Below are positions 3,358 to 24,400 of a DNA stretch of 64,000 nt, one piece after another. This DNA comes from a virus. Where the stretch lies: positions 8,990 to 72,989 of IMG/VR virus record IMGVR_UViG_3300032053_000047; one strand, given 5' to 3'. How positions within the stretch are numbered: position 1 is the first letter of the stretch; the number at the start of each line of letters is the position of its first letter. A model generated the notes under the pieces. That model was not told the origin of the DNA and searched no databases. It saw only the letters and a list, made by a program, of their open reading frames with translations. The translations under genes were made by a program, and so were the position numbers.

Positions 3358-3378
3358 GCAGTAAACAGTTGAAGTGCG

Positions 3379-3402
3379 GCGGGGTCTAATAATAGGCCCC
3401 GC
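3379..3402 (+). terminator. Hairpin after major capsid gene
   Basis: GCGGGGTCT-AATAAT-AGGCCCCGC; weak U tail. Confidence 0.5.
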
Positions 3403-3430
3403 TAATTAACCACAAATAGAGAGGATCTAT

Positions 3431-3874
3431 ATGGACGCGATACACATGCAAGCGAGGCTCGATGCGTTTTATCACGAAATGTCCGCGATGATCACTGATG
3501 TCGGGGTACAGGATGTTGCTGAAACCGACCTCGATGAAATCCTTGTGATATTACGGGAACGCTGCCTGTGGAAGAAAGAAAACGACACCACACTAAACGC
3601 TATGGGCACTGGTAGTAAATCCCGTGCGCAGGCGTTTGGAGAACTCAGTCTTGGCAATGCGCAAATCCAACGGATTCTCAAAGAGTTTTATGTGGGGCGA
3701 CCAAAACTGAAAATGCTGGTAACGGAAACACCTAAACCGGAAACACTAGAAGCGCTTCCGGCATTTCCGATTCCGGTAACGCCCCTAGTGAAACGCGGGC
3801 CGGGTAGGCCTCCTAAAGTACGTGATGCGGAACTTGCGCCCCCGGAATCTGCCCCTACGCCCGAAACTGAATAA
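3431..3874 (+). CDS. Hypothetical protein with C-terminal AT-hook-like motif
   Basis: KRGPGRPPK near C terminus; SD GAGGA. Confidence 0.6.
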   Translation: MDAIHMQARLDAFYHEMSAMITDVGVQDVAETDLDEILVILRERCLWKKENDTTLNAMGTGSKSRAQAFGELSLGNAQIQRILKEFYVGRPKLKMLVTETPKPETLEALPAFPIPVTPLVKRGPGRPPKVRDAELAPPESAPTPETE

Positions 3875-3925
3875 CCACGGAACCAATGGGGGCGTTCACC
3901 GCCCCCTACGTGAAAGGACCACGAA

Positions 3926-4552
3926 ATGAAAACACACGGTAGTATCCAAAACCCCGAACTACGCATGATCCTGAATGCCGAAGGGTTGAAGCAGGTGGCG
4001 TTCATGCCCCTAGCGCCGGATGATGACTGGTTTAAAGTCTCGACCGTGCCGACGGCACACGCAACTTCCAGCGTGACCACGTTACTCGCCGCAGCAATGA
4101 CGTTACCCTACTGCCCCGGCTGGCCGGTTGTTCCCGTGTTGACGTGCATCGAAGACACGCACGATACGTGGACGGTAGTTTCGGCACTCGTTACGGGCAT
4201 CAACCAGTTTGGCGATTGGTGCCAAGAAACAATTGCGGGTGTGAATAGTCCCGCGAAAACATGGACCGCAACGTGCTTAAACGCTTACCAGACCTTGATC
4301 AGCATCGTCATCACGATCACGGGCGATGTTGCTGCGGCTGACAGGTACAAACTCGGGTTCAATAAAACCTATGGCGTCGGCTACCACCTCGAAGCGGCCA
4401 CGGACCTGATCTGTTCACTGTTCAACTTCGCGGCGGACGCGGGCACGTTGTCTCTGGCATATCAGACATACATTATTGCGGGTACGCCAGCAGCAAGCGT
4501 CGCAACGAATGTGATCCTGCTCATGAGGCCGCAGCACTACTTCGGCAAATAG
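3926..4552 (+). CDS. Putative virion structural/decoration protein
   Basis: Thr/Ala-rich, beta-type composition; located in head module. Confidence 0.45.
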   Translation: MKTHGSIQNPELRMILNAEGLKQVAFMPLAPDDDWFKVSTVPTAHATSSVTTLLAAAMTLPYCPGWPVVPVLTCIEDTHDTWTVVSALVTGINQFGDWCQETIAGVNSPAKTWTATCLNAYQTLISIVITITGDVAAADRYKLGFNKTYGVGYHLEAATDLICSLFNFAADAGTLSLAYQTYIIAGTPAASVATNVILLMRPQHYFGK

Positions 4553-4573
4553 GCCGAGGAGAGGCGGTGCATC

Positions 4574-4966
4574 ATGGCACTAGCAGTTACCAGAGAAGAA
4601 TATTGCGAGGACTGGCTCGCCTGTTACACGCTCGAATGGGTATCGGCTGCTGATGGCACGTTAAGCGAAATCATTGCGGCCATCCAGGGCACGATAGAAC
4701 GTATTGTGTTCAAACCCTCAAGCGATGCCGGTGAAACCCCGTTCAGTCTCTATGACGTGACCCTACTTGATCGGGATGGTATCGACATACTATCCGGCAA
4801 AGGCGCAAACCTGAGCAACACGGCGGCATCCAGCGTGCTCGTTACAGACACCACGCCGGTACTGCCGATTGCGACTATAGGCCTGCTCACGTTGAACGTC
4901 GCCCATGCCGATAGCGGCGGTGCTGGTACACACTCGGGCACAATCCGCATTTACCTGAGACGATAA
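4574..4966 (+). CDS. Putative virion structural protein
   Basis: SD GGAG; beta-rich; located in head module. Confidence 0.45.
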   Translation: MALAVTREEYCEDWLACYTLEWVSAADGTLSEIIAAIQGTIERIVFKPSSDAGETPFSLYDVTLLDRDGIDILSGKGANLSNTAASSVLVTDTTPVLPIATIGLLTLNVAHADSGGAGTHSGTIRIYLRR

Positions 4967-5023
4967 AACCTCCGGGGCGGGGCGTTCGCATCCTGCCCCG
5001 GATAACTCTATTGAGGGCGTGTC

Positions 5024-5464
5024 ATGGCGAGCACATGGATTTCTGAAGTCGCTGCCGATACCTATTTCGCAACGCGGCTCGGCGCATCAACCTACTGGAG
5101 CAGCGGGGCAGAAAAAGAGGCCGCGCTAACTACGGCACAATGGCAGATCGAGAATTCCGATCTGTTTGGCGGTTATCCCGATGTATCCGTAACGGGCGAA
5201 GTTGCAACGCAGGCCATGGCGGATGCCGTGTGCGAGCAGGCGCTGTTCCTATTGCAAGACGCCGATGTCGATACCCGCGTGAACCTACAGGCGCAAGGAG
5301 TTCAGCAGGCAGGCATGGTGCAGGAGACGTACAAATTGGGCAACGGCAGGATCGCCATATCGGGCCGTGCTTATGCGTGTATGCAGAAAGCGGGCTACCT
5401 CAAATACGGTAAGGGGTTCCGGTATGACAGTCTGGCCAGCCAGAACGCCGATGATCTCGACTAA
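5024..5464 (+). CDS. Head-tail adaptor (DnaT-like/gp6-type)
   Basis: WISEVAADTYFATR...KEAALTTA...AVCEQALFLL pattern of phage head-tail connectors. Confidence 0.75.
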   Translation: MASTWISEVAADTYFATRLGASTYWSSGAEKEAALTTAQWQIENSDLFGGYPDVSVTGEVATQAMADAVCEQALFLLQDADVDTRVNLQAQGVQQAGMVQETYKLGNGRIAISGRAYACMQKAGYLKYGKGFRYDSLASQNADDLD

Positions 5465-6810
5465 TGAAGGCAACCCACGTAATGCTTTTACAGCGGCGTA
5501 ACGCGCAACGAAATCAAGTAGTTGATAATCAGGAAATATACAAGTCACAAATGTCGCCGCCGATCCCGCCCTGCCCCCTTTCCACACAACCGATTTGCGG
5601 ACAACCTCTATACACGGTCCTCGACGACGGGGCTTGGGCGGGACAACGTTGTTTTCTAATTGGCGGCGGACCCTCTTTGATCGGATTCGATTTCTCGCGT
5701 TTGGATGGCGAACTTGTTATCGGGATCAACCGGGCGTATGAAAAAATTGATCCGGCGATCATCTACACGATGGATACCCGTTTTATCGCATGGGCATCTA
5801 GCGGCACTATCAGTATTGAGGCACGCAAAAAACTCTATACGTCATTGGCTACCCGCGTTTTTTCTCGGGCATCTACAAAAAATTATCCTAAAGGTTTTTA
5901 CATTATCGAACGTTCAGGAAGCGACTTGTTTCAAGGCAGTTTACGCAAAGGGTGGTGTGGGCACAACAATTCCGGGTCCGGCGCATTATCTTTGGCGATA
6001 GCCCTCGGCTGTTCTGAAATTTACTTGCTTGGGTTTGACATGCACGGCGATCCGGTTACGGACAAACAAACCTGGTGGCATTCAGGGTATCCGGCGGACA
6101 GCATACAGAAAGCCAGCGTGGTCTACAAGGCAATGCGGAGCGCATTCGGACATCATGCGGATGCCATTAAAGAACGCGCGCGCGTTATTAACTGCAATCC
6201 CGATAGCGCACTTCGCTGTTTTGAGTTTGGAGATCTCCCTGAACCATGTCCGCCGCGCCCTACGGTTGTGGGTTTCTACACGGCTGGAACTGGGTATGAA
6301 GCCGAAGCGCGAGAGATGATCGCCAGCGCTCACCGTATGGGACTCAGGACTGATGTGCGGGCAATTGAGAATCAGGGTTGGCAACGGAACACCTCGTATA
6401 AGCCGCGGTTGTTGCAGGAAATGGTAGAGAAATATTGGGAATCCGCTATCGTCTATACCGACGCCGACTCCCGGTTTATGCGTTACCCGGCGTTATTCAA
6501 TGCCGATGGCGGTCTAGCCGATTTTGCCTATCACCGCCATAAGAGCAAAGAGGTTCTATCCGGCACGTTATTTATCCGCTGTAACGAATCCACCGCGGCA
6601 CTTATGCGGCTCTGGGCTAAAACGTGTGAGCAAAATCCGCAGACATGGGATCAACGAAACCTGGAAATCGCGCTGGGCAAATGGGACGGCAACTGTTCCA
6701 TATTGCCAGCCGAATATTGTTGCATCTTCGATTACAAACCCGCTCCCGATAAGCCCGTGGTAATTCACTATCAGGCGAGTCGGCGGCTGAAAAAGGAAGT
6801 AGGTGCCTAA
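5464..6810 (+). CDS. Two-domain glycosyltransferase (Maf/DUF115-like N-terminal domain + GT-A nucleotide-diphospho-sugar transferase)
   Basis: FLIGGGPSL, IGINRAY, NNSGSGALSLAIALGCSEIYLLGFDM; C-terminal YKP, YTDAD (DxD), WDQ, HYQASR. Confidence 0.8.
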   Translation: MKATHVMLLQRRNAQRNQVVDNQEIYKSQMSPPIPPCPLSTQPICGQPLYTVLDDGAWAGQRCFLIGGGPSLIGFDFSRLDGELVIGINRAYEKIDPAIIYTMDTRFIAWASSGTISIEARKKLYTSLATRVFSRASTKNYPKGFYIIERSGSDLFQGSLRKGWCGHNNSGSGALSLAIALGCSEIYLLGFDMHGDPVTDKQTWWHSGYPADSIQKASVVYKAMRSAFGHHADAIKERARVINCNPDSALRCFEFGDLPEPCPPRPTVVGFYTAGTGYEAEAREMIASAHRMGLRTDVRAIENQGWQRNTSYKPRLLQEMVEKYWESAIVYTDADSRFMRYPALFNADGGLADFAYHRHKSKEVLSGTLFIRCNESTAALMRLWAKTCEQNPQTWDQRNLEIALGKWDGNCSILPAEYCCIFDYKPAPDKPVVIHYQASRRLKKEVGA

Positions 6811-7031
6811 TGTACTTCCTAGTCACCGGCGTACTGCGTGGCAGACCGGGCAAACATCATTTTGCGATCTGCGCCGATGACCATGAGCAGGCGGCCACGA
6901 CGTTGCGGCGAACACGCCCGAATCTCTGCGATGTTCGGTTTGAAGCATGGAAAATGTTTGCTGGAGAATCCTGGTTTAGTTACGAACTTGATGAAGATAC
7001 AAAACAATGCCTGGTAAAACTACAAAACTAA
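6810..7031 (+). CDS. Hypothetical protein
   Basis: Translationally coupled (TAATG) to the upstream gene. Confidence 0.5.
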   Translation: MYFLVTGVLRGRPGKHHFAICADDHEQAATTLRRTRPNLCDVRFEAWKMFAGESWFSYELDEDTKQCLVKLQN

Positions 7032-7219
7032 AGAGCGGCAAAGTCCGCGTGCGATGGGGCGGCAAAGTCGTTGCCAAGAAGACGACAAAGAAGAAAGCCC
7101 AAGCCCAACTAAGGTTGCTCAGGGGAGTCGAACACGGATGGAAGCCAACAGGGAAAAAAGCGAGCAAAAAGAAGAGCAAGAAGGCGAGCAAAAAGAACCG
7201 GCGGAGTAAACGGAAATGA
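7007..7219 (+). CDS. Small Lys/Arg-rich basic protein
   Basis: KKAQAQLRLLRGVEHGWKP plus a KKASKK repeat tail; ATGA overlap with the next gene. Confidence 0.65.
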   Translation: MPGKTTKLKSGKVRVRWGGKVVAKKTTKKKAQAQLRLLRGVEHGWKPTGKKASKKKSKKASKKNRRSKRK

Positions 7220-8094
7220 TCGGCCACTACGTTACCGGCAATGACAAGGCCCATCTATATACGCCCACCTATGAACATTATTTCAACTGTCCCATCATAG
7301 GCACATTCAACGTCAAGATCGATGGACGCATTAACGATTACCGGCCCTGTATTGTAGATGAGCAGGAACTAGACCGCCGCTTTTGGGTTGTCCGTATCAA
7401 TGACAAATATTTCGCATGGGCGGTACGTTGGCGCGGTTCAAAAATGCCGTACAACATAATCGAACTCGTGTCCAAAATGCCGTTACCCGACGATCTCAAA
7501 GAAGGCGATCTATCTATCGAAGTGCTGGAACCGCTCATAGGCGCTGAACTCCAGAAGTGGATATCTCAGCAAACCTACTGGTTCCAAAGTTTCTCATGGT
7601 CGCCGCAACGGGCCGACTCGGCACTAGTATGGAACGCCGTCAAGGATCATGTGGATTGGTCTGGCAAAACATTACTCGATATCGGCGGGGCAAACGGGGC
7701 GCATTGTTTCCCGCCGTCGCGGCTGGGGGCGCGGGTTACGTGTTTTGAACCCGATACGCCCGCCCGCGAAAAAGGGATGTTCATAAACGACCATATTGAG
7801 ATGTGTGACGTGACCTTCTGCGATGCCGACTCCGATGGCGTGTTCGACGTGATTTTCTATTTCTCCGTGCATCACCAATGGGATGAAGCCTATTCGCATT
7901 TAGCGGAAACGCTTGCGCAGTTTAAGAATCGGGCGCGAGAGAAAGTCTTTGTCGAACTGATTGTACCTGACCTCACTAACAAACTCACTGAACTGCAGAT
8001 TGACGCGATTGTCGGCGGTCAACCACTTCTAACCTATCGGCACAAAGTACGGCGAGTGCGGCGGATTTATGAACTAATAGGGGAAGCCGAATGA
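7216..8094 (+). CDS. Class I SAM methyltransferase with N-terminal riboflavin-kinase-like domain
   Basis: LLDIGGANG motif I and FDVIFYFSVHH; N-terminal GTFNVK...IIELVS..L...LKEGD. Confidence 0.75.
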   Translation: MIGHYVTGNDKAHLYTPTYEHYFNCPIIGTFNVKIDGRINDYRPCIVDEQELDRRFWVVRINDKYFAWAVRWRGSKMPYNIIELVSKMPLPDDLKEGDLSIEVLEPLIGAELQKWISQQTYWFQSFSWSPQRADSALVWNAVKDHVDWSGKTLLDIGGANGAHCFPPSRLGARVTCFEPDTPAREKGMFINDHIEMCDVTFCDADSDGVFDVIFYFSVHHQWDEAYSHLAETLAQFKNRAREKVFVELIVPDLTNKLTELQIDAIVGGQPLLTYRHKVRRVRRIYELIGEAE

Positions 8095-8837
8095 TCTCTA
8101 TCGTCATGCCCACGTATAACCAAGGCTGGTATATCGCTGAATCCGTCCGCAGTGTTCTGGCGCAAACCTATAGCGATTTTGAATTGATCGTTGTGAATGA
8201 TGCTAGTACCGATGATACCGCGCAAGTGCTTAGTGCGTTTTTTCATCCCCGGATGATTGTCTTGACACGCACCGAAAACGGCGGCACGGGATTGACGTTA
8301 AACACCGGATTCAATGCGGCGTCACCCCAATCGGTTTATGAGACGTGGTGGGCATCAGATAACGTGATGTACCCGCAGAACCTGGCGATCCTTACGAAAT
8401 ACCTCGATGATCACCCTGAAATAGATTTCGTTTACGGCAACTGTGATATCCGGCAAATGGATGCGAACGGAAAAGAGATCGGGCGCAAAAACTTACTGGC
8501 TGAGGTTAAAACACAGACGTGGGATTTAGATCGCTTCTTACAGTCCTACCACCTCGGCATCTGCTGGTTATGGCGTCGGGCATTGCGGGAACGGGCCGGA
8601 TGCTGGTTTCAAAAAACACCTTGCGAAGACTATGACATGACCGTGCGTATGGCCGCTGTCGGCGGACAGTTTGCCCATATCCCGCAGACGCTCGGGTGGT
8701 TCCGGCGGCACAATCAGAATATGTCATGCCGCATCCGGGGCAAGGGGATCGCGCCGAATTACGCGCAGAACTTGCGCAAATTTCAGTATATCCAAGAACA
8801 CGGTATCAGTGCGTGGATGAAAGAAACGGCGCAATGA
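8091..8837 (+). CDS. Glycosyltransferase family 2
   Basis: ISIVMPTYN, SVLAQTYSDFELIVVNDASTD, CEDYD. Confidence 0.95.
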   Translation: MISIVMPTYNQGWYIAESVRSVLAQTYSDFELIVVNDASTDDTAQVLSAFFHPRMIVLTRTENGGTGLTLNTGFNAASPQSVYETWWASDNVMYPQNLAILTKYLDDHPEIDFVYGNCDIRQMDANGKEIGRKNLLAEVKTQTWDLDRFLQSYHLGICWLWRRALRERAGCWFQKTPCEDYDMTVRMAAVGGQFAHIPQTLGWFRRHNQNMSCRIRGKGIAPNYAQNLRKFQYIQEHGISAWMKETAQ

Positions 8838-9793
8838 AGATCCTACTCCTAAATTTGGAATTCGATTGCGGCGGCGCATCTTGGAATCTGATGGAGGCGA
8901 TCCGGACGTGCCACCCTGGGCACGAAGTCAGGCACGCCATATTCAAGACCACCTACGCCGCTCCTAATAGTGACATTCTATTCAAGCGAGTAGAAGATCT
9001 GTTGCCGTTCTGCGAATGGGCCGATGTGATTCACTTCAATAACTGGCTTTGGACACACAAACCCGGCAACAATCGGCTCGGGTTCTATCCCGTTAATGAG
9101 TATGGCGGACCCTCGCCGTTTGAATCCGTATTGCAGGACAAAAGCAAAACTATCGTTTATCATTTCCACGGCGGCAATCACCAACTCAACCCGAAATATT
9201 GGCTTGACGAATGCACTCGCATTGGCGTTCGTATCCTGAAATGCGACCCGTTGTGTCCGATACCCGGTGCAACATGGTTGCCAAACGTACTCGACCTGAA
9301 ACCCGCGCAGGTCTGCCGACATCAGCCGTTCGGCGTGGCTATCATGGGCAATGTTAGCGATCAACGCCGAAACAATTATGCTATCCAATCCGTGTTGAAA
9401 TACCTCGATATCCCGCACAAGTTTTTTGGTGAAGTTCCCCGTCAAATTGCTCTCGTGGAACGCCGCAAATACCCGGTGTGTATTGATAATCTCACCCAGG
9501 GGTTCGCAGGCATGTGGACGTGGGAAGCCCTCGCCATGGGACAGGTGCCGATTGCGCGGCTGGACCCGGCGGTAACGGTGCAATATCAGGGTGCGCCTAT
9601 TGTCCAATGTCCCAACCTCGATTGGGTATCATTTCGACTTCGGCGATTTCAGGATGACCCGGTATTCTGGGATCAATGGTCGCGGGCCGGGGTTGCGTGG
9701 ACGGAGGAACACAATTCATCTGCCGCGGTAGCGGGCCGGTATATCGAGTTTTACCAAAAGGCAAAAGATGATCCAGACAATCTCAATCATTGA
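8834..9793 (+). CDS. GT-B (GT4-like) glycosyltransferase
   Basis: MKILLL start, ADVIHF, HFHG, WEALAMGQVPI; ATGA coupling. Confidence 0.75.
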   Translation: MKILLLNLEFDCGGASWNLMEAIRTCHPGHEVRHAIFKTTYAAPNSDILFKRVEDLLPFCEWADVIHFNNWLWTHKPGNNRLGFYPVNEYGGPSPFESVLQDKSKTIVYHFHGGNHQLNPKYWLDECTRIGVRILKCDPLCPIPGATWLPNVLDLKPAQVCRHQPFGVAIMGNVSDQRRNNYAIQSVLKYLDIPHKFFGEVPRQIALVERRKYPVCIDNLTQGFAGMWTWEALAMGQVPIARLDPAVTVQYQGAPIVQCPNLDWVSFRLRRFQDDPVFWDQWSRAGVAWTEEHNSSAAVAGRYIEFYQKAKDDPDNLNH

Positions 9794-10310
9794 CATCTGC
9801 AACCTAATACTTAAAAAGTGGGGTGCTGAATCCGCCCTTGAACTCGGTTGCGGTATCTGCGGGATGATTTCCCGCCTGCATCTAAACGAACGCCGCGTCG
9901 GTATTGATAACTGGCAACCGTCTCTAGATGAAGCACGCGAGAAATTCCCTTTTGTAAAAACCATTTGCGCAGACATCCGCAGGGTAGGCGAGTTGTTCGT
10001 CCCCAGTAGTATAGATATCGTCTGCGGGTTCGATATCTTGGAACACCTCCTATATGCAGATGCTATGCAGGTTATGGATGCTGCCGAACGCATAGCCCGG
10101 AAAGGAGTCATTTGGTGGGGACCGCTCGAAGAAGACGAACCGCGCGATATTGAAACCCATGGCAACCCCGGCATGAAACACATACGGATTATCAACCTGA
10201 ATGAATTTGAGACACGGGATTATGAATTGATCACGTTTCCCCATTATTGGACAGAACTACCCATGTATGGGGCTACCGGATTTTTGGCATTCAAAGGAAG
10301 TGCGCAATGA
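9768..10310 (+). CDS. Class I SAM methyltransferase
   Basis: LELGCGICG, VGID, DIVCGFDILEHL. Confidence 0.9.
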   Translation: MIQTISIIDICNLILKKWGAESALELGCGICGMISRLHLNERRVGIDNWQPSLDEAREKFPFVKTICADIRRVGELFVPSSIDIVCGFDILEHLLYADAMQVMDAAERIARKGVIWWGPLEEDEPRDIETHGNPGMKHIRIINLNEFETRDYELITFPHYWTELPMYGATGFLAFKGSAQ

Positions 10311-11281
10311 CCCAATCAGGTCCGGCCTTAGTAACACAATATTTATCAGCCAGCACGTATCCGGCAAAACTGATTGCCGATCCGGGTACGATTGCGATGA
10401 TCAAACGCGGGTTTATCCCGCCCATTCACGTACAACTATCACCAACAAACCGTTGTACACGCGCCTGTAGTTTTTGCAACTGCCGGGGCCGCGACAAAGA
10501 CGCCGAACTATCATTAGCCCAGATCATGCAATGCCTCCGGGACTTTTTCTCGTTAGGTGCGCGGGCATTGACCATTACGGGCGGCGGCGAACCGCTTTGT
10601 TATCCCGATCTCGATGCCGTGATCGAGTTTGCTGCTAACCTCGGGTATGACGTGGGGCTGATCACAAACGGCGATTTACTGAGTGTGAAACCGTCAGATG
10701 CCGCGCTTCACCGCCTAACATGGTGCCGGATCAGTGCAAGCGATGAAACGAATCAGATAGCCGCACTGGAAGAGCGTGTTGCCGCCCATTTTTCCGTTGA
10801 CTGGGCGCTCAGTTATGTTGTCACGGCAAAATTCGATTCAAGTAACCTAATGGAACATATCGCATGGGCTGAACGCGCCAATATGACGCATATCCGCATC
10901 CTAGAAGATCACACCAATCTCGGCAAGACGCTGGGCATTGAACAGGTTGAAGCGCTTGTCGGGGTTGACAATCCGCGCATCATCTACCAGCACCGAAAAG
11001 AGTTCTTCCGCGGTCCCGCTAATTGCCGGATCGGATTGCTCAAGCCCTATGTCGGCTCTGAAGGAAACATATACCCCTGTTGCGGAATCCAATTCGCCCT
11101 CGGTGATAAACGATATGCTCTACCGAAAGAATTGTCTCTATGCGCTATTGAAGACATTAAAGAGTTCTGGCATAAGCCGACGCTATTCAACGGTTCCCAA
11201 TGCGTCCAGTGCTACTATCAAATGTACAATGACGTACTGCGGATTCTCACTTCCAATATTGCGCATGGGGGGTTTCTATAA
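10307..11281 (+). CDS. Radical SAM protein with SPASM/twitch-like C terminus
   Basis: CTRACSFC (CxxxCxxC), TGGGEP, ITNG, GNIYPCC, C-terminal CxxC. Confidence 0.92.
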   Translation: MTQSGPALVTQYLSASTYPAKLIADPGTIAMIKRGFIPPIHVQLSPTNRCTRACSFCNCRGRDKDAELSLAQIMQCLRDFFSLGARALTITGGGEPLCYPDLDAVIEFAANLGYDVGLITNGDLLSVKPSDAALHRLTWCRISASDETNQIAALEERVAAHFSVDWALSYVVTAKFDSSNLMEHIAWAERANMTHIRILEDHTNLGKTLGIEQVEALVGVDNPRIIYQHRKEFFRGPANCRIGLLKPYVGSEGNIYPCCGIQFALGDKRYALPKELSLCAIEDIKEFWHKPTLFNGSQCVQCYYQMYNDVLRILTSNIAHGGFL

Positions 11282-12202: not shown

Positions 12203-12474
12203 CTGCAACAGAAATTAGCGCACTCAATGCGACCGTAGACAAAATCCTCGGGGTTCTACAGGGTGAACCCGGCGAAACGGGACTTGTCAGTGAAGTTAAG
12301 GCTATTGGGGTAGAACTCGCTCAGCAAGGAGTCCGCCTTGAAATACACCTAACGGCACACAAGGAATGCGATACTAAAAAAGAAACTCGCATGTGGGATA
12401 TATTTAAGACCATACTTATTCCGCTTGCCGCCGGACTAGTTAGCGCAGCCCTCGTAGTATGGGGTCTAAAATGA
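12199..12474 (+). CDS. Small membrane protein (coiled coil + C-terminal TM helix)
   Basis: C-terminal ILIPLAAGLVSAALVVWGL. Confidence 0.6.
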   Translation: MTATEISALNATVDKILGVLQGEPGETGLVSEVKAIGVELAQQGVRLEIHLTAHKECDTKKETRMWDIFKTILIPLAAGLVSAALVVWGLK

Positions 12475-14348
12475 GCGCCCAGCGGGGTCGCCCCAACCTG
12501 CCGCCCGACGTGACGCGCGCGCAACAGGAACTTATCCGGGCATACCGAAATGCTACCCGGCGGCTAGAACGGCAACTCTCAGGAGCCGCCCTTACGGATT
12601 TCCAGCGGTTCCGAATCACCGAACAGCTTCAACAGATCCGAGTTATCATTGCAGCCCTTAATCAACAGGCCCAGGATGCCGCACAGCGCATGATCGGCCC
12701 ATCCTATAGGGTAGGGATCAAACTGTCCGCGGACGCCCTTGTACGGGCTGGTATCGAAGTGAATATGGGCAATGTATTGGCTACTGAGGCTATTGCGGTT
12801 GTTGCCGATCAAATGGCGATGGATCTTATTGCTGCGAATGCCAGTTTGGAAATACAGGCGCGGCGGTTTTTGCGGCTTACGCAACAAAAGTTGCTCACTG
12901 AACAACAGATTAACCAAGGGATCGCCCGAGGGATTATCGAAGGTGAAACCCGGAAACAGGTGAGCGACCGGCTGTTGAAGCAGCTTAAGGGGAAGATGGA
13001 AGAAGGCGCACGGATCGTTATCAAGTGCAAGGATGGCAAACTCCGGTCCTACGACCCGGCCCAATATGCCGAACTTGTAGCACGCACGCGCACGCGGGAA
13101 GCCGTTACGCAGGGGACGATCCGCACCGGCATGGACTATGAAGTCTACCTATTTCAGGTATCCGTGCATTCCGGGGCGTGTGAGATGTGTATCCCGTTTC
13201 AGGGCAAAGTGTTTGCTATAGTTGACGGTACGGGGTATCCGATACTAAAGGAAAGCCCCCCGTTTCATCCGAACTGCATTTTGCCGGAAACGCCTGTCTT
13301 TGCCCCTGGTAAGCGGGCCGCATTTGTTGCCGCCTACAACGGCCCGGTAATCGATATTATTCTGTCCAATTCCGCAAGGGTGTCCGTCACCCCGAATCAC
13401 ATGCTCCTGACCCCGACCGGGTTCGCTTTTGCAAAGGATCTTTGCGAGGGACAAGAGGTACTCTATAGCACCGCCTTTGAGAATGTAGTATTTGGACACC
13501 CAAATAATAACAACCGTCCATCCTTCATCGCGGATATAGTCGAATCGCTTTCTAAAACGAGCGGCATGTGCTCCAGTAGCGTGCCAGCTACCTCCGAAGA
13601 TTTCCACGGCGATGGGCGGTTCGTTAATAGCGACATCAATGTTATATGGGCCAATGGCCTTTTGCGAAGTAATATCGAATCCAAATCGGGCGAGGTGCCG
13701 AGCGAGAACGATTTCGATGGGACTGACATTGCTCTGTTTGGTCTCACGTGTTGTCGCACGACGGCAAAGATGCTCAAAACTTTGGCGCTTGCCGCGGACG
13801 GCATCATGGGCGGCTTTCGTGATGGCTGCGCGGCCCTCTGGCCCCATCTTCGCCATGGCAATTTTGGTGGCTTCGCTTCCAGTACGCTTCTTAATTTTAC
13901 CCCTGCGGAGAATTCCATCAATGACGCACTGAATTGTTCCGAATTCACGCATCAATTCTCCTACACTCTCTCCGGCACAATAGCGCGAGCAAATCTCATT
14001 CGCGGGCAACAACAGTCCCGGCCTTTGATTTCTCTTGATGCCCCGCCTTTTCAGGATGCCGTTAACATCAACGGGAAATTGTTTCTTGATTTCCTTAAAC
14101 GGAATTCTAGCCAAATAGGCGTTGCACACGTCGTCTTTAAGGGAATTCGGCAATATTCTGGGCATGTCTATGATCTCCAAACTGATTCATCATTATACCT
14201 ATGTAATGGCATAGTATCAAGTAATTGCGGCCATGTCCTAACTGCCTTTATCCCCCGCGACGACGAACAAAACACCGCCCTGCGCCAGTTTTCCCACACC
14301 CGGGGGGGCGTTGCAGATTATGAGGAATACCAGGCCGCAATAGCTTAA
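12471..14348 (+). CDS. Phage minor capsid protein (MuF/Phage_min_cap2-like), intein-containing
   Basis: YAELVARTRTREA, CEMCIPFQGK, and PPFHPN|CGH once the intein is removed. Confidence 0.88.
   Translation: MSAQRGRPNLPPDVTRAQQELIRAYRNATRRLERQLSGAALTDFQRFRITEQLQQIRVIIAALNQQAQDAAQRMIGPSYRVGIKLSADALVRAGIEVNMGNVLATEAIAVVADQMAMDLIAANASLEIQARRFLRLTQQKLLTEQQINQGIARGIIEGETRKQVSDRLLKQLKGKMEEGARIVIKCKDGKLRSYDPAQYAELVARTRTREAVTQGTIRTGMDYEVYLFQVSVHSGACEMCIPFQGKVFAIVDGTGYPILKESPPFHPNCILPETPVFAPGKRAAFVAAYNGPVIDIILSNSARVSVTPNHMLLTPTGFAFAKDLCEGQEVLYSTAFENVVFGHPNNNNRPSFIADIVESLSKTSGMCSSSVPATSEDFHGDGRFVNSDINVIWANGLLRSNIESKSGEVPSENDFDGTDIALFGLTCCRTTAKMLKTLALAADGIMGGFRDGCAALWPHLRHGNFGGFASSTLLNFTPAENSINDALNCSEFTHQFSYTLSGTIARANLIRGQQQSRPLISLDAPPFQDAVNINGKLFLDFLKRNSSQIGVAHVVFKGIRQYSGHVYDLQTDSSLYLCNGIVSSNCGHVLTAFIPRDDEQNTALRQFSHTRGGVADYEEYQAAIA
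13245..14165 (-). CDS. Vsr/DUF559-like homing endonuclease encoded antisense within the intein
   Basis: YNIDVAI...IAVEIFGGSWH...GWTVVIIW; N-terminal HTH-like repeats; alternative start at 14180. Confidence 0.8.
   Translation of the reverse strand: MPRILPNSLKDDVCNAYLARIPFKEIKKQFPVDVNGILKRRGIKRNQRPGLLLPANEICSRYCAGESVGELMREFGTIQCVIDGILRRGKIKKRTGSEATKIAMAKMGPEGRAAITKAAHDAVRGKRQSFEHLCRRATTRETKQSNVSPIEIVLARHLARFGFDITSQKAIGPYNIDVAINEPPIAVEIFGGSWHATGAHAARFRKRFDYIRDEGWTVVIIWVSKYYILKGGAIEYLLSLAKILCKSEPGRGQEHVIRGDGHPCGIGQNNIDYRAVVGGNKCGPLTRGKDRRFRQNAVRMKRGAFL
13275..14225 (+). mobile_element. Intein (317 aa) inserted in the HPN-C motif
   Basis: Starts CILPETPV; block B SVTPNHMLLT; ends YSGHVYDLQT...NGIVSSN, followed by Cys+1. 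Confidence 0.92.
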
Positions 14349-14357
14349 GCGGGTTTG

Positions 14358-14386
14358 TGGACAACTCAGGAAAGGTATGATATACT
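14358..14386 (+). promoter_or_regulatory. Sigma70-type promoter
   Basis: TGGACA-N17-TATACT with extended -10 TG. Confidence 0.65.
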
Positions 14387-14392
14387 ATTGCT

Positions 14393-14518
14393 GTGATTGG
14401 CTATGCCTGACAAGCGTAAGGTCGTCGTCTAGCTGGCTTAGGACAGTTCCAAAAAGGCAGTTTGTCGCTGCTGAGTACCGAGAAAACGCGGGTCCGAATC
14501 CCGCCGACCAGCCATCAC
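14393..14518 (+). ncRNA. tRNA-like structured RNA
   Basis: D-arm GTCT-AGCTGGCTT-AGGAC; T-arm GCGGG-TCCGAAT-CCCGC; acceptor GGTCG/CGACC; no canonical anticodon arm. Confidence 0.55.
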
Positions 14519-17209: not shown

Positions 17210-20170
17210 ATGGCCTATGACGCAGGTGCGGTGGTCGGCCATTTACGGATGGACATGTCCGGGTGGACGCAGAACGTCGCCAAGGCACAATCCGATTCAA
17301 CGTCACTCAAAGCGACTATGAAAAGCCTTGGCGATAGTGTCCGTATGGCGTCCCTGGCATTCGGCGCAATTGGTGCAGCCATAACCTTGCCTCTCAAAAA
17401 GATGATCATGTTGGCGGGTGAAGATCAGCGGATATTTGCGCGCCTGCAACGGGCTGTTGAAAACGTCGGCGTGTCGTGGTCGAGTGCCGCTAAACGTGTT
17501 GATGAATTTACCATGGCGATAGAACGGCAGTCCGTTTATAGTCACGATGAAGCGGCCGCATCTTTAACGCGCCTAATCATTATGACGGGCGATCTTGAGT
17601 CCGCCATGGGCGGCGTGAAATTGGCGGCTGATTTTGCTTCAAGCGGATTAGTTGATTTTCAAACTGCCTCTAAATACGTCGGTATGGCGATGTCTGGCCA
17701 GATATCTAAGTTGGGAAGAATGCTACCCGACATGTCGGTTGCCAATGATGAAATATTGAAGACGATGACCGGAGTGCAGTTAGCAGTATATGGGATTGAT
17801 CTACTACAAAAGAAATTCAGAGGACTATCTGAAGCCGAACTACAAACATTACCTGGCCAATTAAAACAGTTGCATAACTATCTTGATCTCGTACAGGAAT
17901 CTATCGGCGAGACGATGATTCCGACTGTAACGGATTTTGTGAAACGCATGGGGGATGCTGCAACCGGACTTACGCGATTCATAAAAGCCAATAGTGAGGC
18001 GGTCGGGAAAGTGACTTTAGTCGCATCGGGCGTAGGCGTTGCTTCACTTGCTATCGCTGCCATGGGTGCTACATTGACGCTAGTAGTCCCTGGTATAGTT
18101 ATGGGGTTTCATGCAATAGCTATTGCAGCGGGCGTAGCGTGGGCGGCGATACTTGGTCCCATCGGCCTTATAGTTGCCGGACTCGCGGGAGTTGCTGTTG
18201 CTGCCTATGTATTACGGGCGGAATTCAAACAGAATCTATATGGAATGAAAGCGGAATTCCAGGGGCTTGTTAATTTCATCGGCAAGGGTCTTGAAAACAT
18301 GGTGGGCAATTTTGGCGGGTTCTTTCACGTTGTCGGCAAAGGATTTATTAACCTATTTAATTCCATAGTCGGCGGTTGGATGGGGATCAATGCTGTAATC
18401 AATAGTAGTATTAGGAATATGTTTGATCCTAGTGGTCTTAATAAAGCTCTTGATGCTGGTCTTGCCGCAGTACGGAAGGACTATTTTGGGCCTCTATTCA
18501 ATTTTATAACAGATGAATTCAAAGCGGAATGGATGAATTTGAAAGAGATTGGTGCGGCAACTGCCGCACAAATGATAGCAGACATTGCGGTGATACGCGG
18601 AAAGTTTCCCGGTCAGTCCGTGGGCGAACAGATGCAATCCTGGTTTCCTGTTATACCTGAACCCAAACCCGCGCCTGGCGCATCCGATGTCGAAAAGGGG
18701 GCCGCTGATGCTGCTAAAAAGGCACTGGAAGATCTTATCGATGCGGGCAAAGCCGCCTATTACGCAATAAACCCGGTTGAGGGCATCTTTGCCAAACTAC
18801 AAGAGGATCTACTCGGTATAAAAGCCGCCGGATTACTTACCGATGACACGCGCAGCCTGCTCGGGGTTGCCTTATGGGACCAGATCAAAGAACTCGCACC
18901 TGCGTCTATACAGGCCATCATAGACAAGATCGCCGCACTTGACCCTGCAATTGCAGCCGCTACGGAATCGGTCCGCCAACTCGCCATAGCGGGCGAAGCC
19001 ACGAAGATCCTCACCGAAGCCCAACCCGATCTCATGGCGTTCCAAAAGATCACTGGCGAACTTGAAACGCTCAAAACGGCGGGCCGCATGGGCGACGAGA
19101 CTATGAACATCATGTCCGCCCAGTACTGGCGCGAATGGGGCGGCATGGCTGATGCGGAATTGCAGCGGCTCATAGATCGGCTCGACGAAATGGGTGGGGC
19201 GGCGGCGGAAGTTGGCGAACAGTTACGGACCAATATGGCGTTAGAAAGCGTTGAAAAAAAAGCCGATCCAGAACTGGCAAAAATCAATAGAAAAATAAAA
19301 GCGTGGGAGGATTTGCGCGGAATGGTAGGCAGTCTGGCAGGCGAATTATCTACCTTGGGATCAAATATGGGTAGCACGGCACTCCAGGCAATCGGACAAA
19401 TTATTAGTGCTCTACTTACTATGATAATCACCTACTATATGATGATGGCGGCGGCTATTGCTGCGGGAACGGCGGCGGCGATGGCATGGATGGCAATACT
19501 AGGACCAATTTATCTTGTTGTTGCAGCGATAAACCTTGTTATCAGTCTTTTCATGATGTGCGGTAGTACAGCCAAAAAAGAAATCACCACCATTCAAAAA
19601 TTGATGAAGGGCCTGCAAGACGTAATGAATTCCGCCATAGACAGTTTTGCCGACGCCTGGGTGGATTTCCTCGAAACCGGCAAGTTCGAGTTCAAGGAAT
19701 TTGTAGACAGCGTTTTGAAAGATCTTGCCCGTATGATGGCCCGGCTGGCCATGCAGGAAATTATCGGCGGTGTCTTTGGTCTAAGTGCAAGTGTGTTCAG
19801 CGCCAAAGGCAATGTGTTCAAGGCGGGCAACATCGTGCCGTTCGCACGCGGCGGCGTAGTTCCCTACCCCACCATGTTCCCCATGCCGGCCAACAAACGC
19901 GGCATGATGGGCGAGGCGGGGCCGGAAGCGGTGTTCCCGCTTACACGGACACGCGGGGGCGATCTCGGTGTGCGGGGACAGGTTGCGCCGGTCAACATCG
20001 TGGTCAACGACATGCGCCGGGGCGGCGAGCCGGTCCAGGTATCCGAACAGACGGCCCGCGACGGCACACGGCAATTACAGATCACAATCCGCGACGCCAT
20101 TGAGAGCATTGCCGCTGAAGGCGGGTTAAAGCGCACACTCCGGCTGGCAGGCATACAGGGGGCCTACTAA
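17210..20170 (+). CDS. Tape measure protein
   Basis: 986 aa, Ala/Gly-rich helical; lambda-type C terminus FARGG...MGEAGPEAVFPL. Confidence 0.95.
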   Translation: MAYDAGAVVGHLRMDMSGWTQNVAKAQSDSTSLKATMKSLGDSVRMASLAFGAIGAAITLPLKKMIMLAGEDQRIFARLQRAVENVGVSWSSAAKRVDEFTMAIERQSVYSHDEAAASLTRLIIMTGDLESAMGGVKLAADFASSGLVDFQTASKYVGMAMSGQISKLGRMLPDMSVANDEILKTMTGVQLAVYGIDLLQKKFRGLSEAELQTLPGQLKQLHNYLDLVQESIGETMIPTVTDFVKRMGDAATGLTRFIKANSEAVGKVTLVASGVGVASLAIAAMGATLTLVVPGIVMGFHAIAIAAGVAWAAILGPIGLIVAGLAGVAVAAYVLRAEFKQNLYGMKAEFQGLVNFIGKGLENMVGNFGGFFHVVGKGFINLFNSIVGGWMGINAVINSSIRNMFDPSGLNKALDAGLAAVRKDYFGPLFNFITDEFKAEWMNLKEIGAATAAQMIADIAVIRGKFPGQSVGEQMQSWFPVIPEPKPAPGASDVEKGAADAAKKALEDLIDAGKAAYYAINPVEGIFAKLQEDLLGIKAAGLLTDDTRSLLGVALWDQIKELAPASIQAIIDKIAALDPAIAAATESVRQLAIAGEATKILTEAQPDLMAFQKITGELETLKTAGRMGDETMNIMSAQYWREWGGMADAELQRLIDRLDEMGGAAAEVGEQLRTNMALESVEKKADPELAKINRKIKAWEDLRGMVGSLAGELSTLGSNMGSTALQAIGQIISALLTMIITYYMMMAAAIAAGTAAAMAWMAILGPIYLVVAAINLVISLFMMCGSTAKKEITTIQKLMKGLQDVMNSAIDSFADAWVDFLETGKFEFKEFVDSVLKDLARMMARLAMQEIIGGVFGLSASVFSAKGNVFKAGNIVPFARGGVVPYPTMFPMPANKRGMMGEAGPEAVFPLTRTRGGDLGVRGQVAPVNIVVNDMRRGGEPVQVSEQTARDGTRQLQITIRDAIESIAAEGGLKRTLRLAGIQGAY

Positions 20171-21030: not shown

Positions 21031-21410
21031 TGGACTGGACCAAATACATCGGAATCCCTTTCTCCTGGCATGGCCGCGACTGGACTGGCGTGGATTGTTA
21101 CGGCATTCTATGTCTCGTATTTGAAGCGCGCGGCATTATCCTACCCGACTATGGGTATTTGGACGCCCCCAATCTTACGCCACTTTTTAGTGCGGGTCTC
21201 CACGAATCGTGTTGGCGGCGAGTCGATAAACCCACTACATTCGATGCCGTACTGTTTTCGATCAACGGCCAGCCGCTTCATTGCGGCGTTATGGTGGATG
21301 ACACGCGATTCCTGCACGCCCGCGCGGGCGTGAACAGTTGTATTCAGCGCGTAGACGGTATGGCGTGGCGCAACCGCGTACTGGGGTTCTACCGATATGT
21401 ACAGCCCTAG
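21030..21410 (+). CDS. NlpC/P60 tail assembly protein (gpK-like)
   Basis: YIGIPF..GRDWTGVDCYG, HCGV, FLHA. Confidence 0.9.
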   Translation: MDWTKYIGIPFSWHGRDWTGVDCYGILCLVFEARGIILPDYGYLDAPNLTPLFSAGLHESCWRRVDKPTTFDAVLFSINGQPLHCGVMVDDTRFLHARAGVNSCIQRVDGMAWRNRVLGFYRYVQP

Positions 21411-24400
21411 AACAATAGATAAAGTTATCATAACAGCGGGTTCACTATTTTTCCCCGGTATCCGCACCCGCATGGAAGCTGAACCCGGCGGTTCGATTCT
21501 GGATCTTATCAGGTTGGCGAAAATCCCGGAACGGTATCATTCATACCTAACCGTATGGCTTGATGAAATGCCTATCCCAGAAACGTTCTGGCCGCGTGTC
21601 AGACCGCGGGCGGGCCATATTCTGGCTATCGGCATGGCACCCGCGGGCGACCTCACTGGCGCGAACGGGAAAGACACCCTGCAACTGGCGATTCCCGTCA
21701 TGCTCCAATTTGGCGCAATGGCAGGCGCGCTCGCGTTGGGCGCTCCGGGGATTCTCGCTGGCGCAGCGAGTCTTGCGGGCGGCGGGATCGGGGTATGGAT
21801 TGCACAAAACCTGATTCATGTGCCGGAACCCTATACGAATCCGGGGTTCAGCACAATCGTTGGGGCACGCAACCAGGTCCGTAAATATGAATGTGTTCCC
21901 CGCGTTTACGGGCGTATCCGGTATGCGCCGCCGCTTGCAGCTATGGCAGATATGCCATTCGAGGGGGCGGATCAATATGCCAAACTATTATTGACGCCCG
22001 GACACGCGCCTTTGGCGATTAGTGCGATCCGTATTGGCGATATTCCAATTGTTGACGCTGAGGCTGTAAACATTCAGATTGAACGTGTATGTCACTGGCA
22101 CGACCAGGATACGATTACACTATTCAGCCGCGACGTTCATACTATTATGCTTGAAAAGCAACTCAATTATGCCGATAGTTGGATAAATACTGAAGATCGA
22201 TCCGGCGCAGAATCTCCACACCTAAACGTCGTCACTGCTGCAACGCAGGAAAAAACCACGGAAGTCACGATAGATTTCTTGTTTCCCGATGGATTATGGA
22301 AGGAAAATAACAAAGAGGTTGAATCGCGTACAGTTACGCTTGCCATTCGATACCGGCTCAGGGGTGCTACCGGGTCTAACTCTTGGATGTTATATTCAAC
22401 TAGAGAGTTGGTATCCCCAAAACCTAAATCCGCTTGGGTTGCCGATCCGTGGACCTATACAAGCCTTGCGACGTGCAACAGCGTGCTTACAACAGCCGAC
22501 GCCGCAATGACGCTTATTGATGTAGGATCTAGGACCGTTTCGATGACTGTATGGACGTATTTCTTGGCGAAACTATCCAGCGTTGATGCTCGACTAGCGG
22601 CGAACATTGCACAGGGTTTTCTTACATCTAATCAAGAAACAGAATCTATAACTGCCCGCGTCCTAATTGCCTCAATATCTGCAACACTCAACACGGCAAC
22701 AATTACAGCAGACATGACGGAATCCACCGCCTCTGATTTTAATGATGCGCTATCAGGTTTAACGTTTGTCCTCGATGCCATAGACTGCATAGAGCAAATG
22801 TTAGAGGCCCGCAACAATAACCTAGATTGGGATTCCCTTCCGGCATGTCACCGTCTTTGTATGTATGAATTGGGACTTACATTAGTGTGGCCACCGCGCC
22901 CATCTAATACAAGCGCGATTATCGTGACTGCGGCAAGCGCTGCGCCTTTGCCATACGCGGTTTCATGGTATGTTCCCGAAGGCCAGTATGATATTCAGGT
23001 CCGCAAGACTTCAGCGGATAACTATGGCGATCAAACCGTCCATGCAGTCATCGAGTTGTTTGCCTACCGGAGCACCTCGTTGGAAGCGGCTGTATCCGAG
23101 GCAATGAAACAAAAACTGGCATTCGTAGCCATGAAGATCAAGGCGACTGACGAGTGGAACAACCAGATCGACCAGATCACCATGCTGTGCGAGTCACCCT
23201 TGTACTGGCATGACGGATTAGTATGGCGCGGCCCGGATCTCCTAGATGACGCCGGATATGAAGTATCCCGCAATCCGGCGTGGCAGATGTGCGATATCCT
23301 GCGGGGCGGCGCGGCCAAAGAACCCATTACGGACGACGATGATCTCGATCTTGTGCGGATTCGGGAGTTTGCCAATTATTGCAACACGCACAAGTACACC
23401 TGCGATATCGTATTTGACAAACGGGTTAGCGCCGAAGAAGCGATGATGACCGTATGCCGGTGCGGGAAAGCCACCCCGAGTAAAACGGGTGAAGGCAAGT
23501 ATACTGTAATTATAGATCAACCTCAAACTACTCCCGTTGCCCTTATAACCCCGCGCGTGAGCAGCAATTTTGTTGCCACAAAAAATATGGAGGAACGCCC
23601 GCACGCACTCCGGGTGAAATTTCAAAATGCCAATAAAGATTATCAGGAAGATGAGGCATATGTTTATGCGGACGGATACGGGATAGAACACGGACTTGCC
23701 GAACCGACCGTCATAGAAGATGTTGAAATGCCCGGCGTTACCAGCCCCACGATGATCAAACATTTGGGCCGGTATTTCCTTGCTTGTTCCCAGTTGCGGC
23801 CCGAGATTTTTCAGGTTGACATAGATTTCAAAGCCATTGTATTCGAGCGCGGCGATCAGGTCCTGCTCCAGCATGATGTGCCGTTATTTGGCCGCGGGTC
23901 AGCCCGTATAACGGCGTTGGAAGTCATTGGGGCACGCACGTTCGTAACGCTCGACGAACACCCAACAGCATGGGCGTGGGGTGCGGGTGCGTCAAATGCG
24001 ATCCGTATTCAGACAGGAGGCAACCTGTTTGCCTATACGCCGTGTATTTACGATATTGAGGTTGATGCGGATCGGCTTTATGTTGATGAACCATACCCGA
24101 CTAACTGGGGAAGTATCGCAGTAGGCGATCTTATTGCAGTTGGCGCAATTGACCTGGAAACGGTTGAATGTATTGTGCGCGGGATTTCGCCCGGCCCGGA
24201 CCTGACATACCGCGTCACATTCCTCGATCATGCGCCCGAAGTCCATGACGCCGACGACGATATCCCGGAATACGATTCGCACATCACTTTACCGTATCAT
24301 CCCGAACTTGCACGGCCCCCACGCCCTGAAGTCATCGGGATTTCAACGGCTGATTCCGCAACGGTGCGGCAGACTGATGGAACCAAAGCAGCGCGTATCC

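Follow-up and report, generated by a model that had tools for sequence, protein, structure and literature searches.

The window analysed here, a stretch of 64,000 nucleotides (positions 8,990 to 72,989) of the IMG/VR virus record IMGVR_UViG_3300032053_000047, carries a phage MuF-like minor head gene. This gene is interrupted in its conserved HPN/C(R/G/K)(C/H) motif by what is very probably a mobile class-1 intein whose homing endonuclease is a separate gene, written on the opposite strand over the same triplets. The insert codes on both strands, and purifying selection switches strand along the intein. It is a clean natural case in which approximately 0.9 kb is read both ways, with selection visibly passing from strand to strand, and it shows how an intein can house a selfish nuclease that is no part of the intein polypeptide. 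This layout was already known. An earlier note on this DNA had suspected that similar inteins might already be reported, and a preprint by Gosselin, Arsenault and Gogarten (bioRxiv 10.1101/2025.01.02.630785) does report them; the window adds a member from an uncultured sediment phage. Our additions beyond the main text of that preprint are a map of the strand switch in selection, the reach of true double coding at either end of the nuclease gene, and an embedded promoter-like box, ribosome-binding motif and start codon tied to the Ser-Ser-Asn end of the intein.

From the features collected in Table 1 we infer splicing, cleavage, homing, promoter activity and the timing of expression as follows. 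The late MuF mRNA would be translated through the whole insert, and a compact splicing (Hint) domain made of intein residues ~1-70 and 277-317 would splice itself out, restoring HPN-C. The approximately 200 intervening sense residues would be a mostly poorly structured connector, needing only a stop-free frame. A 306-amino-acid (aa) protein combining two helix-turn-helix (HTH) repeats with a Vsr-like nuclease would be expressed from the minus strand by means of a sigma-70-type promoter (14220-14192), a GGAG motif (14178-14175) and the ATG at 14165. This nuclease is predicted to cut an intein-less MuF gene at HPN/C during co-infection, whereupon repair would copy the intein in.

Table 1. Features of the intein-bearing head gene and of the opposite strand. 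Positions are those of the window; antisense residues are numbered from the TTG at 14180; pLDDT, predicted local distance difference test score; ORF, open reading frame.
Feature	Coordinates	Strand	Basis or remark
MuF-like minor head (head morphogenesis) gene, intein-containing precursor, 629 aa	12459..14348	+	ORF, Pfam, PHROG
N-extein, 272 aa, C-terminal letters PPFHPN	12459..13274	+	ORF translation
Class-1 intein, 317 aa: Cys1, TPNH block B at residues 39-42, end GHVYDLQT..LYLCNGIVSSN	13275..14225	+	
N-terminal part of splicing (Hint) domain, intein residues ~1-70	13275..13480	+	pLDDT 85-97; sense-frame selection
C-terminal splicing part (blocks F and G), intein residues ~277-317	14103..14225	+	pLDDT 85-97; sense-frame selection
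C-extein, 40 aa (CGHVLTAFIP...), plus stop codon	14226..14348	+	ORF; matches CKHVLTAWIP of intein-less L085
Sigma-70-type promoter-like site: -35 TTGATA (14220-14215), 17-nt spacer, -10 TATAAT (14197-14192)	14192..14220	-	
GGAG ribosome-binding motif, 9 nt before ATG 14165	14175..14178	-	antisense of CTCC in block-F codons Asp-Leu-Gln
Antisense gene, putative homing endonuclease, 306 aa from ATG 14165 (MPRILP...), stop 13247-13245	13245..14165	-	ORF, Pfam, homologues, selection
Two helix-turn-helix repeats, antisense residues ~11-45 and 60-93	13902..14150	-	model helices H12-45, H60-93
Vsr-like nuclease domain, antisense residues ~150-270, with D182, E193, W199, H200	13371..13733	-	
Low-confidence C-terminal tail, residues 272-311	13248..13367	-	pLDDT <50 at 272-290 and 301-311

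The translation of the host ORF reads PPFHPN/CILPETPV...NGIVSSN/CGHVL around the insert (slashes mark the splice junctions). Together with the Pfam matches it bears out the claim of the earlier note that a 317-aa intein splits the HPN/C motif of a minor capsid protein. The nucleophile Cys1 (13275-13277) is invariant in an alignment of 55 rows, as is H42 of block B, and at least 90% of these rows also have T39 and N41. The intein end SSN/C (14223-14228) supplies the C-terminal Asn followed by Cys at position +1. Among the 67 relatives with mappable ends, 65 keep both Cys1 and the terminal Asn, and the +1 Cys is present in 65 of 65; the penultimate residue of these 65 is Ser in 60, His in three, Lys in one and Arg in one. 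The Intein_splicing family was matched at E<=0.001 by 42 of the 59 related host ORFs, three of them exceeding its curated cut-off. Of the MuF relatives retrieved with the N-extein, the two closest are intein-less: L085 reads PPYHPNCKHVLTAWIP and L086 reads PPYHPWCRHVL, so that HPN or HPW is directly followed by C(K/R)HVL with no insert. This contiguity across the site fixes the ends of the intein.

The sense frame between the splicing blocks had been described as lacking LAGLIDADG and HNH motifs, and this description is correct: the Pfam scan of the sense insert gave no match to these families at E<=1, and residues 66-276 had no usable match in the ESM Atlas. The structure predicted for the sense intein from the 55-sequence alignment has a mean pLDDT of 70.0, with high values at residues 1-70 and 270-317 and values below 50 at 128-161 and 197-259, and the model shows the Hint fold. 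As its splicing ends are confident and its middle is largely poor, the sense insert shows no sign of a nuclease of its own.

The nuclease is found on the other strand. The minus-strand ORF (13245..14180, 311 aa) begins at TTG 14180; the start was set at ATG 14165 in line with the starts of relatives, which are mostly MPRK.... This ORF shares its triplets with the sense frame (phase 0 mod 3 in each case) and its stop codon lies 30 nt past the N-terminal splice junction. The whole ORF matches the Pfam family REase_MTES_1575 with an E value of 2e-9 (37.8 bits) and also DUF559, and the nuclease domain alone scores 39.2 bits against REase_MTES_1575, the cut-off being 38.2. All 42 related nuclease domains match MTES_1575, 18 match DUF559 and three match Vsr. 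The model of the antisense protein, built from a 39-sequence alignment, has a mean pLDDT of 83.4, is confident over residues 11-270 and contains a Vsr-type nuclease fold. In profile searches of Protein Data Bank (PDB) sequences the antisense protein matched 3hrl (E 0.0028), Vsr itself (1cw0, E 0.0032) and 3r3p (E 0.33); its N-terminal half matched the tandem-HTH protein 2lvs_A (E 4e-7), and its homologues carry the Pfam domains HTH_7, HTH_23 and HTH_38. The earlier note had seen a minus-strand ORF of about 306 aa in the same codon register, with HTH-like repeats and a Vsr/DUF559 signature, and had observed that both frames stay open for more than 900 nt; each of these points holds.

Conservation in the 39 antisense sequences singles out the same residues as the nuclease signature: D182 and H200 never vary, and at least 90% of the sequences have E193 and W199. 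Profile alignment to Vsr (1cw0) equates D182 with D51, E193 with F62, W199 with W68 and H200 with H69; a counterpart of Vsr D97 could not be placed. The C-terminal tail is probably a read-through across the N-terminal splicing block and nine extein codons; its ends differ among relatives, and the sense frame is the selected one there. The sense codons TTA, CTA and TCA are absent from the 313 triplets beneath the antisense open stretch. Such an absence has a probability of 0.015 at the frequency of these codons in the exteins of the gene (4/302) and of 2e-5 at their frequency in 12 other genes of the window, where the longest run is 213 triplets. Homology and selection are stronger evidence for the antisense gene than these open-frame statistics. 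A weak terminator-like site, the only one there, lies at 12906-12890, approximately 340 nt downstream of the antisense stop.

A codon-wise alignment of 70 unique sequences, in which diversity was measured at each triplet position, reveals which strand is selected where. The exteins and both splicing ends have a ratio of 1.2-1.5 between sense-frame diversity at position 3 and at position 1, and over 13460-14000 this ratio falls to 0.46-0.87. In the N-terminal splicing part the ratio is 1.2 and identity is 0.46 in the sense versus 0.37 in the antisense translation; in the C-terminal splicing part the ratio is 1.13-1.25, again the mark of sense-frame selection. The order is reversed in the nuclease core (antisense identity 0.53 versus 0.35) and in the helical linker (0.42 versus 0.25), and in mid-intein variability peaks at the first sense position of the triplet, the third in antisense. 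Rebuilding the alignment on the sense translation gave an identical outcome. The dual coding proposed in the earlier note is therefore borne out by selection that switches strand. The note had also named a comparison of substitutions in both frames as a check, and raw ratios of non-synonymous to synonymous differences per site (pN/pS) agree: in mid-intein they are 0.35-0.48 for the antisense and 0.72-1.11 for the sense frame, with the antisense lower in all six divergent pairs, and at the splicing ends the sense frame usually has the lower value. These are raw values on diverged pairs, the sample containing a single close pair (L016/L017, 98.7% identity). Constraint seems to act on both frames in two short stretches: 13341-13409, where block B TPNH lies opposite antisense VIRGDG (ratio 0.84-0.98, identity approximately 0.53 in both frames), and 13581-13649, which encodes antisense PIAVEIFGGxWH and has the lowest variability at all three positions.

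One could suppose that the antisense ORF is a by-product of selection on the sense strand only. In this register one sense codon corresponds to one antisense codon, so that conservation partly carries over, and antisense VIRGDG is indeed the mirror of sense block B TPNH. However, the mid-intein wobble falls where the antisense frame needs it, antisense identity is higher with either alignment, pN/pS is lower in antisense in every divergent pair, a curated nuclease family is matched by all 42 domains examined, and the antisense protein folds confidently as Vsr-like while the sense middle matches nothing. A by-product origin is already contradicted by these selection, family and fold results and is scarcely credible.

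The start of the nuclease gene lies inside the end of the intein. The promoter-like box, the GGAG and the ATG all fall within the codons of blocks F and G, that is, the last ~20 codons of the intein; the promoter-like site itself occupies the codons for LYLCNGIVSS, has 11 of 12 consensus matches and ends 27 nt before the ATG. We surveyed this place in 66 loci (65 relatives and the window), scoring a 66-nt window in each against a background of 19,576 windows. A full score of 12 was reached by 21 of the 66 loci (background share 0), a score of at least 11 by 41 (background share 0.0003) and a score of at least 10 by 48 (background share 0.0034). The spacer is 17 nt long in 58 loci and the box stands at the same offset in 51. 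The GGAG occupies a fixed offset in 49 of the 66, followed 9 nt on by ATG in 36 and by GTG in six, as counted at that offset.

Codon choice follows these motifs. Counting from the C-terminal junction of the intein on the sense strand, Ser -3 is TCA in 41 of 48 sequences (share of this codon in exteins 0.17), Ser -2 is AGY in 55 of 61 (0.31), Leu -11 is TTA in 37 of 52 (0.07), Leu -17 is CTC in 52 of 57 (0.25), and His -21, the mirror of the ATG, is CAT in 38 of 44 (0.49). Sense third positions elsewhere in the region have diverged (0.54). When synonymous codons were redrawn from extein usage with the amino acids fixed (300 replicates), a mean of 0.16 loci and a maximum of two reached a score of at least 11, against 41 observed; for the window alone, a score of 11 was reached in none of 300 redraws. 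Synonymous sites are thus under selection for the promoter-like box, the ribosome-binding site and the start codon. The -35 hexamer TTGACA mirrors (N)TG-TCA-A(GY), which encodes Leu/Val-Ser-Ser, and therefore the Ser-Ser-Asn end and the promoter go together. The earlier note had proposed that the nuclease is a separate gene, which agrees with the Vsr-like fold, the uniform MTES_1575 matches, the lack of a nuclease match in the sense frame and the conservation of box, GGAG and ATG. We infer, with good support from these motifs, that expression of the nuclease is uncoupled from that of the late head gene.

A fuller reading, on which we are evenly divided, joins these points. In the Ser-Ser-Asn lineage the last ~20 codons would encode blocks F and G and, on the opposite strand, a sigma-70 promoter, a ribosome-binding site and the nuclease start, and the two serines before the terminal Asn (TCA, then the non-canonical penultimate AGY) would owe their retention to the -35 box TTGACA that they spell. 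The host polymerase would then make the nuclease early and independently of the late head gene, and the resulting transcript of 0.9 kb, complementary to the MuF mRNA over its full length, might lower MuF expression or set its timing. The embedded promoter offers a testable reason for the odd terminus of this intein.

Distribution of the insert among relatives bears on its mobility. When alleles are ordered by the identity of their N-exteins with that of the window, those with and those without the intein intermingle: L004 with the intein at 59%, L085 without it at 56%, L086 without it at 48% and L005 with it at 46%. Inteins are often closer to each other than their exteins are, for example 0.51 versus 0.23 between the window and L018, and over 2,080 pairs extein and intein identities are only weakly correlated (Spearman 0.31). 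The interleaving and the identity pattern fit gain and loss of the intein. In a second sediment run a near-identical strain (depth 4-7) has no differences over 13307-14154, five in the N-extein and at least two in the C-extein; this pattern is at most a weak hint at transfer. Among the contigs of the sediment runs matching 12300-14500, none contained a joint that removes the intein.

Several observations weigh against the interpretation of the insert as a splicing, mobile intein with an independently expressed homing endonuclease. The first concern the intein itself. The penultimate residue is Ser, as the earlier note had stated, the usual His being absent, and the only Pfam match of the insert, Intein_splicing, reaches 23.8 bits and remains below the cut-off of 35.8. 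Sense residues 81-127 (13515-13655), opposite the nuclease core, have a pLDDT of 81-88, and the middle is perhaps not a connector throughout; this stretch may form a genuine sub-domain, or its confidence may be artefactual and stem from covariation that the antisense protein imprints. It probably lies beyond the ~106 residues that align with Hint domains, the aligner reporting only the first and last aligned residue. The missing His and the low Pfam score could mean that the insert does not splice and is a tolerated insertion or a cleavage-only element. We consider this highly unlikely: Cys1, the block-B T..H, the block-F Asp, the terminal Asn and the +1 Cys are retained, the insert interrupts the most conserved motif of a head-assembly protein, and a penultimate Ser is the rule of the lineage (60 of 65), explained by the -35 box. 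A penultimate His is common but not universal in inteins, and many active inteins do without it.

A second group of objections concerns the promoter-like box. The surveyed loci are kin and not independent trials, and binomial P values for the codon bias overstate their independence. The inteins ending in His-Asn or Arg-Asn (L070, L069, and those of the phages Snoke and Vivi2) score only 6-9 at the promoter place. In bacterial genomes, two Ser-Ser-Asn inteins score 12 and 10, and those ending in His-Asn or Val-Ser-Asn score 6-9. Since the promoter is missing here from the relatives whose penultimate residue is His or Arg, it is a trait of the Ser-Ser-Asn lineage and not of the whole family. Snoke (L003), with a score of 7, has TGCTATAAT, an extended -10-like motif nearer the junction on the minus strand, which could be an alternative promoter. 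Consensus matches alone do not prove function, the loci are related, and penultimate-His relatives keep the gene without the motif; hence the box, GGAG and ATG might be conserved not as expression signals but through RNA or DNA structure, as a recognition sequence of the nuclease or by inherited codon choice. Against this stand the canonical spacing, the 9-nt distance from GGAG to ATG or GTG in 42 of the 66 loci, the position just upstream of a conserved ORF start, the rare codons fixed exactly where the boxes need them amid diverged third positions, and the failure of codon resampling, almost without exception, to rebuild the boxes. We therefore judge it unlikely that these motifs are anything other than expression signals.

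The last objections concern expression and homing. The window segment 12900-14400 was found in three sequencing runs, all of sediment-metagenome DNA and one of them perhaps the run of origin, and no RNA run was among the runs matching it. No pair in our sample combines a near-identical intein with clearly different exteins, and consequently no recent transfer was seen. The antisense protein, although real and selected, might no longer be, or might never have been, the homing enzyme of this intein: the phage may have domesticated it as a DNA-binding or nuclease protein that serves, for example, in regulation, attack on host DNA or competition between phages and only resides in the intein. Cleavage and homing are predictions, NCBIfam yields weak domain-level matches to ProA and Hhe, two anti-phage proteins, in their nuclease domains, and according to the preprint (10.1101/2025.01.02.630785) most VSR-type inteins look vertically inherited. 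A domesticated protein would not be expected to sit inside an intein in all 83 loci and opposite a long same-register frame in 45 bacterial ones, nor does it account for the interleaved alleles and the many pairs in which inteins are closer than exteins. We find domestication quite unlikely and retain the separate homing endonuclease gene as the best explanation.

The layout is much more widespread than the actinophage survey of the preprint suggests. A word-indexed search gave 142 homologues of the antisense protein at E<=0.001, several of them named 'very-short-patch-repair endonuclease' by their source, and 1,854 cluster representatives matched it at E<=0.001, 208 of these at E<=1e-30. At least 552 relatives were detected in IMG/VR by profile scan, and the best 80 of them were kept. 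In all 83 loci (these 80 and L001-L003, some being duplicates) the nuclease ORF is nested antisense and in the same register within a longer open frame; these frames measure 378-1249 codons, several ending at contig ends. A Phage_Mu_F or Phage_min_cap2 match at E<=0.001 was present in 51 of the 59 host frames scanned and absent from eight; the 59 exclude duplicates, near-duplicates, frames cut by contig ends and two annotated phages. Nuclease homologues occur in 121 cultured-phage records (Salmonella 62, Pseudomonas 15, Gordonia 11, Klebsiella 8, and others including Vibrio), and in Gordonia phage Vivi2 and Escherichia coli phage Snoke the homologue is antisense to an annotated MuF gene. A single-protein search of bacterial genomes returned no close relatives; a profile search of bacterial genomes and metagenome-assembled genomes yielded 45 loci from many phyla with the nuclease opposite a long same-register open frame. 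Of these, 35 pass a strict nesting rule; the other ten are mostly of high GC (guanine plus cytosine) content (eight of ten at GC >=0.67), with the nuclease-strand frame running on. The records examined annotate the antisense gene in part or not at all, and gene callers and annotators will therefore go on missing it.

Several loci showed further peculiarities. Other contigs in all three sediment runs match only 13578-13664, the VEIFGGxWH core, some at depths up to ~120-134; many nuclease relatives therefore share this habitat. The L010 host ORF (2429-5440, minus strand, 1004 aa) has a second Intein_splicing match at residues 276-620, upstream of the intein with the antisense nuclease (~673-993), and this head gene seems to carry two inteins. 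In L012, L024, L042 and L050 (964-1060 aa) the intein-bearing MuF domain and a Phage_portal domain share one stop-to-stop frame, a candidate fusion. The C-terminal part of the MuF host ORF of L066 (1358-4060, minus strand, 901 aa) matches the eukaryotic-type topoisomerase I catalytic core (PF01028, E 1.5e-14). In Salmonella phage vB_StyS-sam (L088) the 133-aa 'hypothetical protein' ORF43 (1604-2005), antisense in the head morphogenesis gene, is part of the nuclease frame, unrecognised as such by the annotators.

Among described systems the closest are the inteins of the preprint, which surveys 63 actinophage inteins with non-canonical nucleases, including antisense VSR-like ones, counts minor capsid genes among the hosts of the non-canonical types, reports an HHpred link to 3R3P and proposes that a free-standing nuclease gene invaded an intein. 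The window shares with them a VSR-like ORF antisense to a contiguous intein; it comes from an uncultured sediment virus that may not be an actinophage and whose MuF protein is at most 29% identical to any from cultured phages, the nearest being in Bacillus phages (28-29%). The terms promoter, Shine-Dalgarno, ribosom- and penultimate do not occur in the main text of the preprint, and our search of the literature for inteins with an opposite-strand or antisense nuclease found no other paper on this layout. Antisense LAGLIDADG endonucleases have been described in the inteins of Synechocystis DnaX and a Chloroflexus SpoVR-like protein (Gorbalenya 1998; Gogarten et al. 2002, as cited in 10.1101/2025.01.02.630785). 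There, too, the endonuclease gene lies opposite a contiguous, presumably splicing intein; the nuclease family (here Vsr-like) and the host genes differ.

The nuclease signature recalls the 'fractured genes', mainly of phages, of Dassa et al. 2009 (PMC2677866), in which a free-standing Vsr-like or GIY-YIG endonuclease gene lies between the halves of a split intein. The Vsr-like homing endonuclease signature given there (Asp, Trp-His, and an invariant Glu where Vsr has Phe62) is matched here by D182, W199, H200 and E193, and both systems have a separate nuclease gene with its own control elements, promoter-like in the window. In fractured genes, however, host gene and intein are divided into two ORFs with the nuclease between them and not overlapped, whereas here the intein frame is open throughout. 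I-Bth0305I (PDB 3R3P, PMC3239194), the intron-encoded homing endonuclease of Bacillus phage 0305phi8-36, differs in that it is the sense-strand product of a group I intron and has another N-terminal part; its sequence similarity is marginal, as the E value of 0.33 above indicates. Snoke CPT_Snoke_004, 'intein-containing capsid morphogenesis protein' (MK931441.1), has the same host gene, the same HPN/C site and a homologous antisense frame (32% identity); its record annotates the intein and not the antisense gene, and its intein ends in His-Asn, with the low promoter score already mentioned.

The host gene is well supported as a minor head gene. Its product exceeds the Pfam cut-offs for Phage_min_cap2 (PF06152, 35.2 bits, cut-off 26.3) and Phage_Mu_F (PF04233, 30.5 bits, cut-off 29.6), matches PHROG 4611 'minor head protein' (E 2.9e-38) and scores 21 bits, under the cut-off, against the NCBIfam model TIGR01641 phageSPP1_gp7; it has the HPNC-type C-terminal motif of MuF and SPP1 gp7-type minor head proteins. 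The source record, of 72,989 bases, is rated complete by CheckV and gives no family or genus, and no second copy of the intein or nuclease was found elsewhere in it. The structural module around the MuF gene is siphovirus-like, with a tape-measure gene at 17210-20167 and a tail J-like gene at 21397-25785. Upstream of this module (5464-11281) lie a sialyltransferase-like gene (5464-6807), a GtrB-like glycosyltransferase gene (8091-8834) and a radical-SAM gene (10247-11278), which are unusual neighbours of a head gene.

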